Source: Leucoraja erinacea (lineage: Eukaryota). From it: a DNA stretch of 64,000 nucleotides. The stretch lies in NCBI RefSeq assembly GCF_028641065.1, contig NC_073402.1, positions 22,444,001 to 22,508,000 on the forward strand, read 5' to 3'. Below, one piece after another: positions 2,895 to 63,394 of the stretch (within the stretch, counting starts at the first letter, position 1; every line of letters starts with the position of its first letter). A program made the translations under genes and the position numbers. A model generated the notes under the pieces. It saw nothing but the letters and a program-made list of their open reading frames with translations, was not told the origin of the DNA and searched no databases.

Positions 2895-3141
2895 ATGTCG
2901 GGTGCAACCAGCTCATTTGGTGCCTGTGGCGGTTAGTGTTGTACTGAGAGCTGGAGTTAAACATCACTTTCAGCCAAATCTTGCACAGCACAGCTCCGAC
3001 AACATTAGTTTTGTTGTGTTGAGAGTTAGAGATTTTAGTTTCCAGATAAAATCAGAACTTTAAACTGCCTTGAGCTGTTAATACCATTACAGTGTGGCAT
3101 CAGTGCTAAATTGAGTGTGGTTTCTGCCTGGCAGTGAGATT

Positions 3142-3682
3142 ATGGCTTGTGTTAATGTTCTGCTCAATAAATGCCAATGTGTTTCTGGAGTGAGACAGAA
3201 CGCAATCTTAAAAACCATCTTGAGCCAGCAGAGCGATCTGAAGATTTGCTCTGAGTTCTCGCATCACAGCTGCCCCTGTGCAACTAGGCGGACAGTTTGC
3301 TTGAAAACTCCACAGGTTACCTGTCAGATGGTATCAGATGTGCTGGTAAAGACAGTAAACTTTATGAAGAACCTTCCTTCATTCCACCACCTTCCCAAGG
3401 CAGATCAATTATTGTTGCTGGAAAGCTGCTGGATACAGTTGTTTCTGTTGGGATTGGCCCAGGAGAGGGTGAGCTTCGATGTGATAGAGACCCCAGGCCA
3501 CAGCATGCTGAAGAGAATCTTGCTGAAGGGGCAAGACCTGATCAAGACAGGGGCAGAGGAAAGGAGACAGCCAACACTCGCTGGTGTACAGAGAGTAAGA
3601 ATTTGGCTGCACAAGTTCTGGTGCTTGGATCTGAGTCAAACAGGATATGCATATCTGAAAGGAGCACTCCTCTTCAATCCTG
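3142..3682 (+). CDS. NR0B2: Nuclear receptor subfamily 0 group B member 2 (SHP), coding exon 1
   Basis: Ligand-binding domain without a DNA-binding domain: ILKTILS, CPCATRRTVCL, FMKNLPSF..LP..DQLLLL, LFLLGLAQ, LKRILL, YAYLKGALLFNP. GT donor at 3683. Neighbours GPATCH3 and GPN2 as in human. Confidence 0.93.
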
Positions 3683-4289
3683 GTAACTAAACGCCATCTG
3701 ATTTTATTCTAGTTACTGTATGTACTCAACTAAAAGAATTGTAATGGTGACATATTTACACAACGTAAAGTAGTTTATATGAACCTAAGAGTAATTTTTC
3801 TGTGACAGTAATGCTGGTAGCAAGGTTGCACAGCTCCAGGGACCAGGGTTTGGTTTTGTCTGTGTAGAAATTAAGTATTCTCCTTCTGAATTTCCATCAG
3901 TCTCTTCGCACATCCCAAAGCATTGTAGGTTAATTGGCTATTTTAAACTAGTATGGGTAAATGGCAATATGAATTAAAAGGGAGTTGATAGACACTTGTG
4001 TGTGTATGTGCTAGAGAGAGAGAGAATAGGACAGAGACACATGGGGAAAACCTGAGAAGGGGATGGGATGGGATTGCTCTCCTGAGAGAGTGGCATGGAT
4101 TTGATGGGTTGAAGATTTATTTCAGTGTCGTAATCAATAAGTAAAACATCAGCAGCAATTTGAGAACCAGCCAGGGTTTACAATTCTTGAGGTCCTTAAA
4201 CGTTCGGTGAATTTTTTAAAAAGGTAATTACAATTTTTGTGTGTGATTATTTGTTCAAAATTTCTGGCAGTTTTTTTTCTTTAGATTAA

Positions 4290-21713: not shown

Positions 21714-22456
21714 GTGACAAAAGGTCCTGGCCTGAAACATCACTGAAGATAGACACAAAATGCTGGAGTAACGTAACGTCTCATTTGGCTCCTCCATTCA
21801 AACCTGAAACATCACCTGTCCATTCCCTTGAAAGATGCAGCCTAACCTGCTGCGTTCCTCCAGTATTTTGTGTTTTGCGCAAGATCCCAGCACCTGCGGT
21901 TCCTTGTGCCTCCAATAAAATAAATTAATCTTATCTCTACCTTATTGATGATCTAAAAAGTCAACTGTTTTTTTGTGCATTATTTGCTGAGTACTTCTGA
22001 CATTTTTAATTTGCAAAATTGTTCTGAAATTTTGTGGATCACACGTTTGGTCTTGTTGGGGAAAAGGTAACACAGAATTTTGAAACATTAGGAGATAAAA
22101 CAAAGCCACGGCGTCTGAGCCAGGTTTGTGCAAGTCCTGTGTATTTTCTTTCCAGATCCCAATAAACTTTCTCCTTAATTATTTATACATTTCTTCTCGA
22201 ACATAACTATTGAATCTGGTTACATTGTCCATTTAGTAAGTGCATTCAGATCTCAACAATTGACATCATGCCCTCTGGTATAAATGATCAAATTGTCACA
22301 ATGAAATTTGAATTTGTGTTCATTAACAATTTGAATTTGTGTCCACTAACAGCCACATCATTGTTTACCTCACTGCCAGCAATTCACACTGGTTGAGTGA
22401 CTTTTCTCTGTTCCAGGCCTGTGGAGCTATAATGAGCACCTGGAGATACGATTAGG

Positions 22457-22873
22457 ATGGCAGAAGAGAACAGGCGTGCCATGGTAACTTTTGGCCAGGT
22501 GGTTATTGGGCCACCTGGCTCGGGGAAGACCACCTACTGTGCAGGGATGCAAGAATTCCTTACTAAACTGGGCCGCAAAGTTGCAGTAGTGAACCTGGAC
22601 CCTGCCAATGACCTCATTCCTTACCAATGTTGTGTGGACATTGCGGAACTGGTGAAGCTTGATGATGTTATGGATGGTCTTGGTCTGGGGCCCAATGGAG
22701 GACTTATTTACTGCATGGAATACCTAGAGGCAAACCTGGACTGGCTACAGGAGAAGATGCAACAGTTCAAGGACTATTATTTCCTATTTGATTGTCCTGG
22801 TCAGGTGGAACTGTACACTCACAATTGTTCTGTACGAAACATCCTTGCACAATTAGCCAAATGGAATTTCAGG
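22457..22873 (+). CDS. GPN2: GPN-loop GTPase 2, coding exon 1
   Basis: [10 protein letters not shown]-loop, NLDPAN, GLGPNGG (GPN motif), DCPGQVELY; donor AGG|GTGAGT. Confidence 0.95.
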
Positions 22874-24317
22874 GTGAGTTCACATTTGTACATGACAGAT
22901 TGAGGGACCTAGTTGGACAGTTAACATTTGCAGAGGAAACATCCAATGCTTCAGAGGTGACGATGAAAGTTATATTTGAAGTCATAGTCACAGTCATACA
23001 GCACGGAACAGGCACTTTGACACAACTTGCCCAGGCCAACCAAGATGCCCTATCTACACATGTCAAACCTGCCCATGTTTCGCCAATAACCTAAATCTTT
23101 CCTATTCATGTAGCTGTCCATGTGTATTTTATATGTTGTTATAGTACCTGCCTCATCTACCTCCTCTGGCATCTCATTCCCACCACTCTCCGAGTCAAAA
23201 AGTTGTCTCTCAGGTTCCTATTAGATCTTTCAACTTTCACCTTAAACTTTTATGTTCTCTGGTTCTTGATTCCCCTACCCTGGGTAAAATACTCAGTGCA
23301 TTTACCCTATCTATTCCTGTCATGATCATATACACTTCTCTACAAGATCACCCCTCAGCCTCCTGCTCTTTCTAGCTTAACAAGATTCTTCCTATAGCAG
23401 GGTGAAGTATTACTTGTTTCCTGCTCACTTTGATGTACCCCCAGCTTCCGTATTCCCTTCCCAGGTGTTTGTTAGATTGCAGCTGACTTGATACAGCATT
23501 GCGGCTTAAAGGTCATGTTATAGATCCTACAGTATTCAGTCAATTTCCAGGGTTCTTATACAGGCATGTAGCACAGAAACACAGTCTCCAGCCCACCATG
23601 TCAATGCCGACCATCAAATGCATATCTACGTTAATCTAATTTAGCAGCACTTTGTCTGTGGCCTACTATTCCTTGGCAATCCAACCGCTGGTCGAGTTGC
23701 TTCTGAAAAGTTGTGAGGGTTCCCACCTCCATCACTTTCTCAGGTGCTGTGATTGCAGCCACTTTCTGGGCGAAAACATTCTTCCTCTGTCTGTCAAAAT
23801 CACTCACTCCCCACCTTAAACCTACTCTCCCTGGTCTTAGATGCCTCTACTCTGGAGAAAAGTTTCTGAGGAATCACATCATTTTTAATTTGTATACCAA
23901 CATCAGGTATACCCTCAGCCTTCTCTGCTCCAAGGAAAACAAATCCATCTTATCCAGTATTTCCTCATAACTGAAATATTCAATCCAGCCTGGTGAATCT
24001 ATTCTGAACCCTCTCCAGTGTAATCATATCTTTCCTATAGTGTAGTAACCATAACTGGACACAGTTCCAGCTGTAGTCTCACCAATGTTTTATAAAATGA
24101 TACCAAGACCTCCCTGCATTTACTTTCTGTACCCCAGTTAATTAAGCTAACCACCCTCTTTATTGTTCAGCTTTATAGGCTAGAAGGAAGGTTAAAGACA
24201 AATTACCAGATTGTATCTCAAGGGAGTAGTGAAGTTTAGATAATTTTTCATTACAACCTTTACTGCATTGTCTGAAATCATGCACAGACAACACAATTCC
24301 AGATATCTTTACAAATA

Positions 24318-57538: not shown

Positions 57539-58580
57539 CCACAATTTGAGATTTATAATAGAAAAAAAAACATGTGGTTACAGTGCACAGTCAGATTTTA
57601 TTAAAGGGTATTTTTAGACATTTTGGTTCACTATGTAGAAGTTACAGCTGTGTTTATACATAGTGTGTTTAATTGCCTCATTAATGCAGGGATAATAGAG
57701 CTCTCAGCACCTAGTCTTTACTCCAGTCTTTCCATCTCCTTTGGAAACCTTTATTACTGTTCATTAACATGAGGACCAAAGTTGTGCCAATGAAAGTCAA
57801 CAAAACCATTATGAGACCGGGAAACAATAATAAAACTGTTAAAGACATCAACCAAAACTTAGGCTTACCAAAATCTACTGTTTGGAACATCATTAAGAAG
57901 AAAGAGAGCACTGGTGAGCAAAGGCATTGGCAAGCCAAGGAAGACCTCCACAGCTGATGACAGAATAATTCTCTCTTATAATATAGGAAAATTCCCAAAC
58001 ATGTGTCCGGCAGATCAGAAACACTCTTCGGGAGTCAGGTGTAGATTTGTCAATTACCACTGTCCGCAGAAGACTTCATGAACAGAAATACAGAGGCTTC
58101 ATTGCAAGATGCAAACCACTCGTTAGCTGCAAAAATAGGATTGCCAGGTTACAGTTTGCCAAGAAGTACTTAAAGAGCAACCACAGTTCTGGAGAAAGGT
58201 CTTGTGAACAAATGAGACGTAGATTAACTTATATGAGAGTGATTGCAAGAGCAAAGTACAGAGGAGAGAAGGAACAAGCATAAGCTAAAGATGGGTGCAA
58301 TACAGGCCTGGCAGAGCACCACCAGAGAAGACACCCAGCAACTGGTGATGTCCATGAATCGAAGACTTCAAACAGTCATTACATGCAAAGGATATGCAAC
58401 AAAATACCAAACGTGTCTACTTTGATTTGCATGACATTGCTGTGTCCCAAACATTTTGGTGCCCTGAAAATGTGCACTTTAACCACGTGATTTTTTTCTA
58501 TTACAAATCTCAAATTGTGGAGTATAGAGGCAAATAAATAAATGATGAGTCTTTCCCCTAAACATTATTGAGGTTTATTA
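57539..58580 (+). mobile_element. Internally deleted Tc1 transposon with truncated left end
   Basis: HTH remnant (LGLPKSTVWNIIKK), TVRRRL…KPL…RLQFAK, C-terminal KGYATKY; DDE core missing; long inverted termini. Confidence 0.88.
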
Positions 58581-59967: not shown

Positions 59968-61403
59968 GTTTATCATTGTAGCTCTTGACTTGCCTGTCAA
60001 TCACTTGCAATACATTCTGGCAAGCAGTGCTGTGAATTACCCAGAATATCTTCTTTTTAAAAAAAATGAGAACCAGCTCTCCTGTTCACAATGAGGTTTC
60101 TTTTACACCCCTTCCCCAGAAGGTGCTGTTCACATCATAGTTTAACATCAGGATGCTTGAAAATGCAATGCTCCAGAGAAAGAGCACAGAGGGTGAGCCA
60201 TAAACCTGTACCCCGCAGCATAACGGAGTGTTGCCCATGGTATTTCTAAAATGGAGATTGATAGATTTTTGATTAGTAAGGGTATTGACTTGGAGAGAAG
60301 GCAAGAGAATGGAATTGAGAAGGAAAAAGATCAGCCATGATTGAATGGAGGAGTTGATTCCATGGGAAATTACCTAAGTGTGTTCCTATCTTATGAACCT
60401 CTTCAACCTGTTAACTGCACCACCTCAATCTCCTAACTCTACATATTTGTATTGGAGTTCTGGTTGATTACTGCACAAACACCTCATCAGTGGTTATCTC
60501 GAGTTGAAGAATTGTAGCCTAGCCCACGATCGTAATCTCAGTATAACATGTCAGAGAGCAATGGAATTTAATATTTCTGTCTCGCAGCTGAAATTAAGGA
60601 AGTCGTCCTTTTTGTAGCTCCTGTACAAGCAGGACAAATATTTTCCATTTTCTTGCTTCTGCTATCATGTGTGGCTCATTGCCTCCTGCATTTAGTTTGT
60701 TAGTCCACCATTCTGTTGAAATCTTCAATTGAAAGTTAGATATTTTGATGTGAGTTTTAGCATGTTAAGGGAGGGGGGGTGAAATAGGTAAGTATATGCC
60801 TGCTTTTAACACACAACAAAATCTGTAGGCTTAACTAGGTAGTGAAATTGTTTATTTGATCTGCTTTTTGAGACTGGAATGGGCCCTGGGCCTCTTTCTG
60901 AAACCAAGTCATGTTGAGTCAGACACATGCATTGGGGAATTACTTGGTCAGTTTTCAAGCTTTCCACATCAGAATTTACAGCTCCAGGCCTTGGCATTAT
61001 TGTAGGAATCTGGACAGCAACCAATATGAAGGAACACTTGTTTTTACTTATATAAACGCAGCATTAATTATTCATGAGGAGCCCAACACTGCAATGGGAA
61101 ATGGCAGAACGTGGATTACAGTTGATGAAATTACGAATTTGTAAGAAGTCAATAGGCCTAGTCCGTGACCTAGGATAAAGTATGCTTATTTAGCTATAGT
61201 TAGCGCACCGAAATGCCCTTGGGAATCACACAGCTGTGCAGCATGGAAACAGACCCTTCGGCTCAACTTGCCCATGTTGACCAACCCCATATAGTGAATT
61301 ATCAACTACCTACATTAAACTTTGTTTCAAAGCCTTCAAATGTCACTACCCTCCTGAACACTGGGTGATGATAGAGACCGATTAATTTACCTGACCTTTT
61401 GAG

Positions 61404-62033
61404 ATAGAAACATAGAAATTAGGTGCAGGAGTAGGCCATTCGGCCCTTCGAGCCTGCACCGCCATTCAATATGATCGTGGCTGATCATCCAACTCGGTAT
61501 CCCGTACCTGCCTTCTCTCCATACCCCCTGATCCCCTTAGCCACATCTAACTCCCTCTTAAATATAGCCAATGAACTGGCCTCAACTACCCTCTGTGGCA
61601 GAGAGTTCCAGAGATTCACCACTCTCTGTGTGAAAAATGTTCTTCTCATCTCGGTTTTAAAGGATTTCCCCCTTATCCTTAAGCTGTGACCCCTTGTCCT
61701 GGACTTCCCTAACATCTGGAACAATCTTCCTGCATCTAGCCTGTCCAACCCCTTAAGAATTTTGTGAGTTTCTATAAGATCCCCTCTCAATCTCCTAAAT
61801 TCTAGAGAGTATAAACCAAGGCCTATTGACTTCTTACAAATTCGTAATTTCATCAACTGTAATCCACGTTCTGCCATTTCCCATCCAGTCTTTCTTCATA
61901 AAACAGTCCTGACATCCCAGGAATCAGTCTGGTGAACCGTCTCTGCACTCCCTCTATGGCAATAATGTCCTTCCTCAGATTTGGAGACCAAAACTGTACG
62001 CAATACTCCAGGTGTGGTCTCAACAAGACCCTG
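61404..62033 (-). mobile_element. CR1 LINE 3' fragment containing an inverted 66-bp copy of flanking DNA
   Basis: RPHLEYCVQFWSP…VQRRFTRLIPG and GLYSLEFRRLRGDLIE are split by an insert at 61819-61884. Confidence 0.88.
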
Positions 62034-62039
62034 ATGTGG

Positions 62040-62630
62040 GGGGTGGCCTCCGTGGTAAGAACTGTGTTGCTGGGCGCGTCTTCAATGACCAAAGAAAGAA
62101 AGCGGAGAGGACGATTAATCCCTGATACTGACACTTGAATCCCGGCGGGTAACCTCGAACATCAGTGGGAGGATATAATTCTCCTGAGCAGCGAATGCCA
62201 GCAAAGATCCTATAGCGAGCGCTATAGAATCGTTGAATGCCAGCAGTCTCCTCAGGTATTGGGCTGAGACGGACTTGGAGCCGCTCCCAGCGGGCTGGAT
62301 TCAGAGGCGTTACCCGTGGGGCGGAACTGTTTATAGTTGCCATTCTCCGCTCGCTGCCATGTACTGTTGGGGTCTCGGTTGTTCTGTCCATTTACCGCCT
62401 CGCACGGTAAGTTCTCGGGGTCTTTTTTTTTCGTGCTGTGTAGAGTTTTCCGTGCCTAAACTGGTTGAGTGCCAGCGGCTTCGCGGGTCACTTTCCGCTC
62501 AGCGACCGAATCTCGGTGGGAAAATGAGAAGAAATGAGAGCACTTCTGATCGGCAATTTGAAAATTAAACTCAAGGACTGACGTTTAGTCGAAAATGAAC
62601 ATCCTGTCTCGCTTATGTAATTTACGTCAT
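62040..62630 (+). promoter_or_regulatory. CpG-rich region with probable first exon (donor at 62407) of an unidentified downstream gene
   Basis: High CpG density, GC-box/ETS-like ggggcggaac, CRE-like motifs and consensus donor CACG|GTAAGT. Confidence 0.5.
62202..62235. mobile_element. 34-bp TIR-only palindrome with an 8-bp TSD (P-element-like footprint)
   Basis: aatgccag|CAAAGATCCTATAGCGA GCGCTATAGAATCGTTG|aatgccag. Confidence 0.7.
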
Positions 62631-63215
62631 ACAACAACAATTTCTACCCTGATTCACTTTACATAAAGCATATTAAACAGAATGATACTATCGTTACTTT
62701 GGAGGGACCCAGCTGAGCTATTGAATTCATATAGAACAACGCTGTCGGTCCCATCCCACCGTTCTTTTATCCAATTATTTTCCCTCGAGTGCTTGTCCAA
62801 CTAACTTTTTAAAGCCCGGTCTATTTCCTCGTTCGTGACAGCCAGTCAGCACCAGAGCAAAGCAACTTAATTTTTGTGAAGATGTTATTTTTTTCTTCGT
62901 TAGATTATCTTTTTCCCATCACTTTTCTGGAACTTTCAACATTTTCTTTTGGAGATAGCTCTCCACTTTCTCAACCGAGTTTTGTGCACCTCCACAAAAT
63001 CTTTGGTCCAAAAAGCCTATCATGGTCTTTCCTCATTCAACATCAGAAAGTTCCCTTTCCAAGCACATCCCATCGGCACTGTAAATCTTATTATTGATTC
63101 AGGGTCAAATTCTTGTTATCTGATGGAACATTGACTAGTGGTTCAAGATTGTATCTCATTGCCACATTTTCACGTGACATTCCATGAATATTAAACTCAA
63201 ATCTCCGAAATTCCT

Positions 63216-63394
63216 GAGGCCAGTTCATTGGCTATATTTAAGAGGGAGTTAGATGTGGCCAAGGGGATCAGAGGGTATGGAGAGAAGGCAGGTACGGGAT
63301 ACTAAGTTGGATGATCAGCCATGATCATATTGAATGGCGGTGCAGACTCGAAGGGCCGAATGGCCTACTCCTGCACCTAATTTCTATGTTTCTA
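63216..63394 (+). mobile_element. CR1 LINE 3' fragment
   Basis: Same young CR1 3' end. Confidence 0.8.

Follow-up and report, generated by a model that had tools for sequence, protein, structure and literature searches.

A 34-bp palindrome between 8-bp repeats as a probable P-element excision scar, and a vertebrate P family whose inner cut may be set by sequence

Introduction

Within the 64,000-nucleotide stretch of DNA analysed here (the window), the octamer AATGCCAG is found at both 62194-62201 and 62236-62243, and the 34 bp between them (62202-62235) form a nearly perfect palindrome. The question that this locus raises is what put the palindrome there. A first-pass annotation had proposed the excision scar of a P-superfamily transposon with 17 + 17 nt of its two tips or, alternatively, an ultra-minimal mobile MITE; it called for a search for other genomic copies, for the lengths of the inserts and of their target site duplications (TSDs), for long elements with the same terminal inverted repeats (TIRs) and for an empty orthologous site.

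In the accessible parts of PMC7776569 and PMC2895639, excision of the Drosophila P element leaves 17-nt tails, and Table 1 of the second source, as far as it is available, records donor-site junctions with microhomology, blunt joins and templated filler. Scar-type junctions are already known, then, from fly experiments. The literature searched yielded neither a report of natural P scars nor one of P elements in cartilaginous fish; subscription papers, Repbase and Dfam lay outside its scope, so the family described below may be catalogued there.

Structure of the 34-bp insert

The perfect 8-bp repeats around the insert were confirmed, as were its 16-nt inverted arms (62202-62217 and 62220-62235), which are 88% complementary, with two mismatches and 2 nt between them. 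The structure is unique in the window when 8-bp direct repeats around inserts of 32-60 bp with 16-nt inverted ends are scanned for. Folding of the DNA at 62180-62260 gave z = -2.2, with 9 of 200 shuffles as good, and showed nothing beyond the palindrome. At this site the direct repeat is longer, 11 nt (62193-62203 and 62235-62245), since the flanks also match bases at either edge of the insert; the boundaries of the 8-bp TSD were therefore taken from the family and not from this site alone.

Comparison with the parent ends divides the insert into 19 nt (62202-62220, ending in GAGC) and 15 nt (62221-62235). The 17 + 17 parse was accordingly rejected, and the symmetry on which it was built is, judged from these alignments, a coincidence. 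The features of the site are the following:

62194-62201, + strand: left TSD copy, 8 bp, AATGCCAG; its length of 8 bp is fixed by the family, and the orthologous site of organism D has a single copy
62202-62220, + strand: left stub, 19 nt, ending at GAGC (the putative inner cut); shared without a difference with the start of the L006 and L008 ends
62221-62235, - strand: right stub, 15 nt of the opposite end, with substitutions at 62228 and 62232 by comparison with the family ends; organism C has the family base at 62228
62236-62243, + strand: right TSD copy, 8 bp, AATGCCAG; direct match to the left copy

The right stub becomes 16 nt long if the shared C at 62220 is counted, which would represent a possible 1-nt microhomology. 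Inserts of 35 bp (C1:93997440 and C1:139047573) have this junction too, with a left arm of 20 nt, and the 19-nt left arm could alternatively have started as 20 nt and then lost a G.

The transposon family in the genome

In the genome (G000, 2.19 Gb), the left 16-mer of the insert gave 2,853 exact matches and its reversed control none; among the first 30 examined, 13 were ends of long elements and the rest were two-tip inserts of ~20-46 bp. Those long elements among the 30 that had both ends in view measured 375-1,174 bp, mostly with 8-bp TSDs. Ends continuing into GAGCAAGAT numbered 5,670 (control, 5), or roughly 2,800 elements, and they fall into three classes according to the distance between tip and GAGC, which is 18, 19 or 20 nt. 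The MITEs of the family span 375-3,395 bp. Since the 19-nt class is found at one end of the MITEs L006 and L008 (~400-600 bp), the donor of the insert was probably a MITE of this kind.

Short inserts were also abundant, and their lengths were concentrated at 22-52 bp: with exact 8-nt ends, 3,828 fell in this range (control, 10) and 162 in the range of 53-83 bp (control, 12), where those listed were mostly compound scars or unrelated sequence. A looser tally, with 7-nt ends and 14-44 bp, reached 8,395 against 1,038 in the control; these counts take in scars copied as passengers inside other repeats. The TSD length was 8 bp across 50 sites, where the mean match was 0.895 at 8 bp, 0.23 at 7 bp and 0.25 at 9 bp. 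The profile of 53 perfect TSDs, taken on both strands (G 0.58 and T 0.66 at positions 1-2), reads G/C-T....A-C/G with a GT....AC core, and resembles the fly P target motif ATRGTCCGGACWAT as given in the accessible part of PMC2577343.

The parent element and MITEs of the family themselves contain scars (L071:7904-8020, L069:710-747 and L066:640-656), copied along with them, indicating that the family often inserted into itself. One passenger scar (L037, L116, L117, L025 and C2:3507303) ranges from 33 to about 60 bp, apparently through tandem slippage of an 11-13-bp unit. Palindromic units of 70-83 bp with the 8-nt tips of the family and a different interior (C2:62112540, C6:49963046 and C6:55928969) are perhaps a separate tiny MITE.

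Coding parent elements

Coding parents were located through a P-family search: the P-type GTP-binding domain gave 38 matches in G000, 10 kb around 20 of them were examined and 16 regions were extended. Family ends with a perfect 8/8 TSD enclosed the transposase gene in 2 of the 16 (C956, 10,519 bp; C1, 9,922 bp), and with a 6/8 TSD in another two (C12 and C1305). Both family ends were present in C4b and C3a with a TSD match below 6/8, and a complete end pair was absent in 10 of the 16 regions. The parent elements span 9.5-11.6 kb, and the TIR of C956 is ~32 bp with one mismatch.

The parent protein is a 773-residue open frame with PF12017, PF21787, PF21788 and PF21789, all over the cut-off, and it matches the fly P transposase structure (PDB 6p5a) with E = 1.3e-42. 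The catalytic motifs align with those of the fly at D206, D296 and E524 of protein P0001, in an RNase H fold split by the GTP-binding insertion. The THAP domain (PF05485) lies on two upstream exons of C956, with E values of 0.0036 (under the cut-off) and 2e-6 (over it); THAP exon 2 has a frameshift in C956 and reads in a single frame in C1, C1305 and C3a. Long elements with these TIRs thus encode THAP and P transposase, as the annotation had foreseen, and the P-superfamily traits found comprise THAP, the split RNase H with D/D/E, TIRs, the 8-bp TSD and a palindromic GT....AC target. The transposase copies differ in protein sequence by up to about 25%. The relatives that bear a name are gastropod P transposases, at 35-40% identity; closer database matches lay at 57-80%.

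Six near-identical transposase copies with frames of 772-773 residues were found on small contigs (L071-L076; C956, C1087, C1188, C1305, C154 and C1296), possibly the result of a recent burst or of a duplicated segment.

The orthologous site in relatives

Contigs of four read sets were compared over 61960-62960. The contig of organism D (~2.8% diverged) skips exactly 42 nt, that is, the insert plus one TSD copy, with 160 nt aligned on the shorter side, so that a single AATGCCAG occupies the expected empty site. Organism B has the same scar. It is also present in organism C, with a later 14-nt deletion (62200-62213) at an AGC repeat that took away most of the left arm; this copy shares the substitution at 62232. 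The fourth read set, which has the organism label of the best-matching ones, reaches the site only from 62206.

Organism D is probably, though weakly so, the outgroup, since it has the most private substitutions (14, against about 10 in C); the margin is about 3 substitutions, and a clock is assumed. Alternatively, D could carry a precise-excision allele. Under either reading of D, its single TSD copy indicates that the palindrome is not an ancestral sequence lacking a TSD. The empty site also shows the 8-bp duplication to have arisen by insertion. A long element at 62194-62243 was not found in the four read sets, and it is from the family that we infer excision at this site.

Where the retained arms stop

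To define where the retained arms end, we took the first 50 of the 3,828 short-insert sites, chosen only by their 8-nt ends, and examined all of them. They fall into 41 flank clusters, and five are nested in family elements. The TSD was perfect in 30 of the 50, and matched at 6/8 or better in 45. Sixteen different insert lengths were present. The junctions comprised 32 overlaps of 1-10 nt (2 nt being the commonest, 18/50), 4 blunt joins and 14 with filler or mutated arms. Nearly every arm (99/100) ended at or before GAGC. Across the genome, 2,110 arms reached GAGC (1,105 of the 20-nt class, 22 of the 19-nt class and 983 of the 18-nt class), against only 38 matches, by a looser pattern, that continued as GAGCAA. 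When inspected by eye, 16 of the 38 were 30-mers, or contained one, that fit a 20 + 10 join, 5 had the tip copied again, 10 were filler or chance and 7 ran into the interior of the element; 15 of the 38 were 30-mers that fit either a 20 + 10 join or a deletion across AAGAT.

Full-length blunt joins of 20 + 20, 19 + 20 and 18 + 18 nt were present (L035, L119, L149 and L195), in a sample that the search patterns enriched for GAGC-ending arms. Mixed 18/20 scars (L128 and L183) and an element with one 19-nt and one 20-nt end (L008) suggest that one event can cut two lengths. The differences between 18, 19 and 20 nt are located at about tip positions 14-16. Inside the putative cut lies AAGAT, a repeat of tip positions 3-7; GCAAGA was kept in 13 of 13 long ends picked by their first 16 nt alone, and GAGCAAGAT was exact in 11 of these 13.

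Since the three end classes, despite their different lengths, share one stopping motif, sequence appears to determine the inner cut. Provided that the short inserts are scars, these comparisons make it likely that the cut is anchored at GAGC^AAGAT, with a stagger of 18-20 nt. Its position is read from repair products. A single A followed GAGC in 13 of the 222 matches listed, and in most of these it can be attributed to the other arm; L016 has GAGCA at its end. A tail 1 nt longer could still be joined preferentially at GAGC, owing to the GC/AGCT microhomology there. Given these matches and this microhomology, the position of the cut is uncertain by ~1 nt. L016:1490-1530 is a remnant with a single arm, in which 20 nt of a 19-nt-class end directly adjoin a 6/8 TSD-like copy.

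Alternative explanations

The annotation's second proposal, that the 34-bp unit is itself a mobile MITE inserted as such, draws on its two tips within a perfect TSD, on the thousands of short units in the genome and on the recurrence of some sequences. These units are nevertheless heterogeneous in length and junction (16 lengths in 50 sites). Where a unit has a distinctive filler, its further copies all share its flanks, as passengers of other repeats, and microhomology predicts the simple junctions that are repeated at unrelated flanks. The units also lack AAGAT and the interior sequence retained in the long ends, and fly P, according to the accessible portion of PMC7776569, requires internal binding sites. 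We regard a MITE of this size as highly improbable. It is also very unlikely that the short inserts are extreme internal deletions, produced by interrupted gap repair or by later loss, instead of joined cut tails. Deletion would account for the seven GAGCAA inserts, out of 38, that enter the interior, and for the MITEs of 375-3,395 bp; it predicts, however, a smooth tail of lengths, and the drop from 3,828 inserts (22-52 bp) to 162 (53-83 bp), together with the hard stop at GAGC in three end classes, argues against it. That the family is hAT-like, or belongs to another superfamily with 8-bp TSDs, with the P transposases as bystanders, is scarcely credible: hAT elements also fit an 8-bp TSD and CAAAG termini, but their donor sites keep hairpin bases derived from the flanks and not transposon tips, and in the parents located by the P-family search these ends, with perfect TSDs, enclose P-transposase genes.

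A further alternative accepts the scar and concerns the cut only: the stagger would be constant, at ~20 nt or at a length specific to each transposase subfamily, and trimming to GC microhomology would produce the stop at GAGC. That overlaps of 2 nt are the most frequent (18/50) agrees with this, and transposases that differ by up to about 25% may include subfamilies that cut differently. However, a stagger fixed at 20 nt would give arms of the 18-nt class two more A, and none of the 100 listed matches of this class continues as GAGCAA. The blunt 18 + 18 and 19 + 20 joins, the mixed 18/20 scars and the 19- and 20-nt ends of L008 also speak against a fixed distance, which we consider unlikely, although less so than the explanations above.

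The P-superfamily excision scar of the first-pass annotation, by contrast, agrees with the family, the 8-bp TSD, the coding parents and the empty site. On the strength of these comparisons, the 34-bp insert very probably represents two tips of a P element rejoined within an intact 8-bp TSD. The 17 + 17 geometry does not hold, as family arms end at 18, 19 or 20 nt and the insert is 19 + 15.

Proposed mechanism

For this excision scar we propose the following course of events. An element, probably a non-autonomous copy of ~400 bp with a 19-nt-class end, would have inserted into AATGCCAG. At both ends, the transposase would then have cleaved one strand at the tip and its complement behind GAGC, and 3' single-stranded tails of 18-20 nt would have stayed on the chromosome. 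During end-joining, which the junction classes suggest for these tails, the full 19-nt left tail would have been kept and fused to a right tail trimmed to 15-16 nt. The resulting germ-line scar would have been inherited by organisms A, B and C, the last of which then lost 14 bp of it.

In the fly structure, as the accessible part of PMC7776569 describes it, the transferred strand loops out, is disordered at nt -14 to -18, doubles back and pairs with the 5' part of the other strand. By analogy, the inner AAGAT could supply a fold-back helix like that of the fly transpososome. The length variation of the family (~positions 14-16) coincides with the disordered loop of the fly, and the two could be structurally linked.

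Our broader proposal, to which we give somewhat more credence than doubt, is that a vertebrate P family has its inner cut set by GAGC^AAGAT and not by a count of 17 nt, so that one enzyme yields staggers of 18, 19 and 20 nt; that thousands of germ-line scars record the cut of this enzyme and the end-joining of the host; and that copies with the 773-residue frame and in-frame THAP exons may be active.

Comparison with known P elements

The family resembles the P element of D. melanogaster in its THAP, HTH and RNase H domains with a GTP-binding insertion, in the length of its TIR (~32 bp, against 31 in the fly) and in an 8-bp TSD with a GT....AC core in both. The scars are also alike, as far as the available portions of the fly sources describe them: both tips lie between intact TSDs, arm length has a hard upper limit and the same junction classes occur. 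Family scars show a bias to CpG-rich sequence, and fly P to promoters. The differences are that the tails of the family would be 18, 19 or 20 nt at one motif, in contrast to 17 nt in the fly; that its scars are natural, inherited and number thousands, whereas those of the fly were recovered in crosses; and that its parents measure 9.5-11.6 kb (2.9 kb in the fly) and have a different TIR sequence.

Zebrafish Pdre, in the accessible part of PMC10983969, comprises at least 50 sequences with a 13-bp TIR, and excision was detected there but no integration, with larger flanking deletions. Pdre (zfTHAP9) and the present family, both P-like and both of vertebrates, share an 8-bp TSD and the presence of internally deleted copies, according to the same parts of PMC10983969 and PMC7776569. 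Compared by description with what is available on Pdre, the family differs in its ~2,800 long copies (5,670 ends), its ~32-bp TIR and its thousands of scars with intact flanks. Human THAP9 shares the P-transposase domain set; the accessible text of PMC7776569 presents it as a single gene without TIRs or deleted copies, whereas the genes of the family lie in multi-copy elements bounded by TIRs and TSDs. With a large P family that includes open-frame copies, mobile P elements of vertebrates also extend beyond Pdre, for which the available part of PMC10983969 reports no detected integration.

A natural series of 18-, 19- and 20-nt ends that stop at one motif leads to a direct prediction on how the inner cut is positioned. 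The scars also offer a large end-joining spectrum from the vertebrate germ line. Cut-and-paste scars mostly go unrecognised for being too short; those of this family measure 12-50 bp, and past germ-line excisions can therefore be counted, and dated against relatives.

Genomic setting of the insert

The CpG-rich surroundings noted in the annotation were borne out:

62051-62550, no strand: CpG-island-like single-copy sequence around the scar (GC 0.53, CpG o/e 0.99), with flat one-contig depth in three other organisms

A GC box lies at 62318 and a GTAAGT donor-like motif at 62407. RNA depth was zero over 62086-62409 and about one read at 62410-62571, in data that are poor detectors of a short first exon: three raw runs (oligo-dT or single-cell) sampled at about 5, 1 and 3 in 100, and one contig set. 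Pfam scans of 45, 110 and 141 ORFs, covering the window and the next 29 kb (the last scan on the + strand only), returned no host gene that could be attached to the CpG island.

The 50-site sample was compared with DNA 1 kb away at the 40 sites that had a TSD of 6/8 or better, were non-nested and had flanks available. Median CpG o/e was 0.62 at the scars and 0.48 at a distance (p = 0.012), and 15 against 4 were island-like. A second set of 48 scars, partly selected for CpG, gave 0.61 and 0.44, with 12 against 4 island-like (Fisher p = 0.053). Part of this bias may come from young CpG-rich host repeats.

The window contains at least eight CpG-island-like stretches. Exons on the + strand at 3115-3690 and 22436-22903 encode a nuclear-receptor ligand-binding domain and a GPN-type ATPase, and a Tc1-type transposase fragment (PF01498) lies at 57987-58280 (+). 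Two copies of a 180-nt repeat, 97% alike and in opposite orientation (61405-61584 and 63215-63394), flank the CpG-rich stretch. The sequence at 61819-61884, inside a high-copy repeat, reproduces in inverted orientation and without a mismatch a 66-nt single-copy stretch that lies 660 bp upstream (61094-61159). Reads from other copies of this high-copy repeat skip 61820-61883, and the inverted copy resembles a break-repair insertion templated locally.
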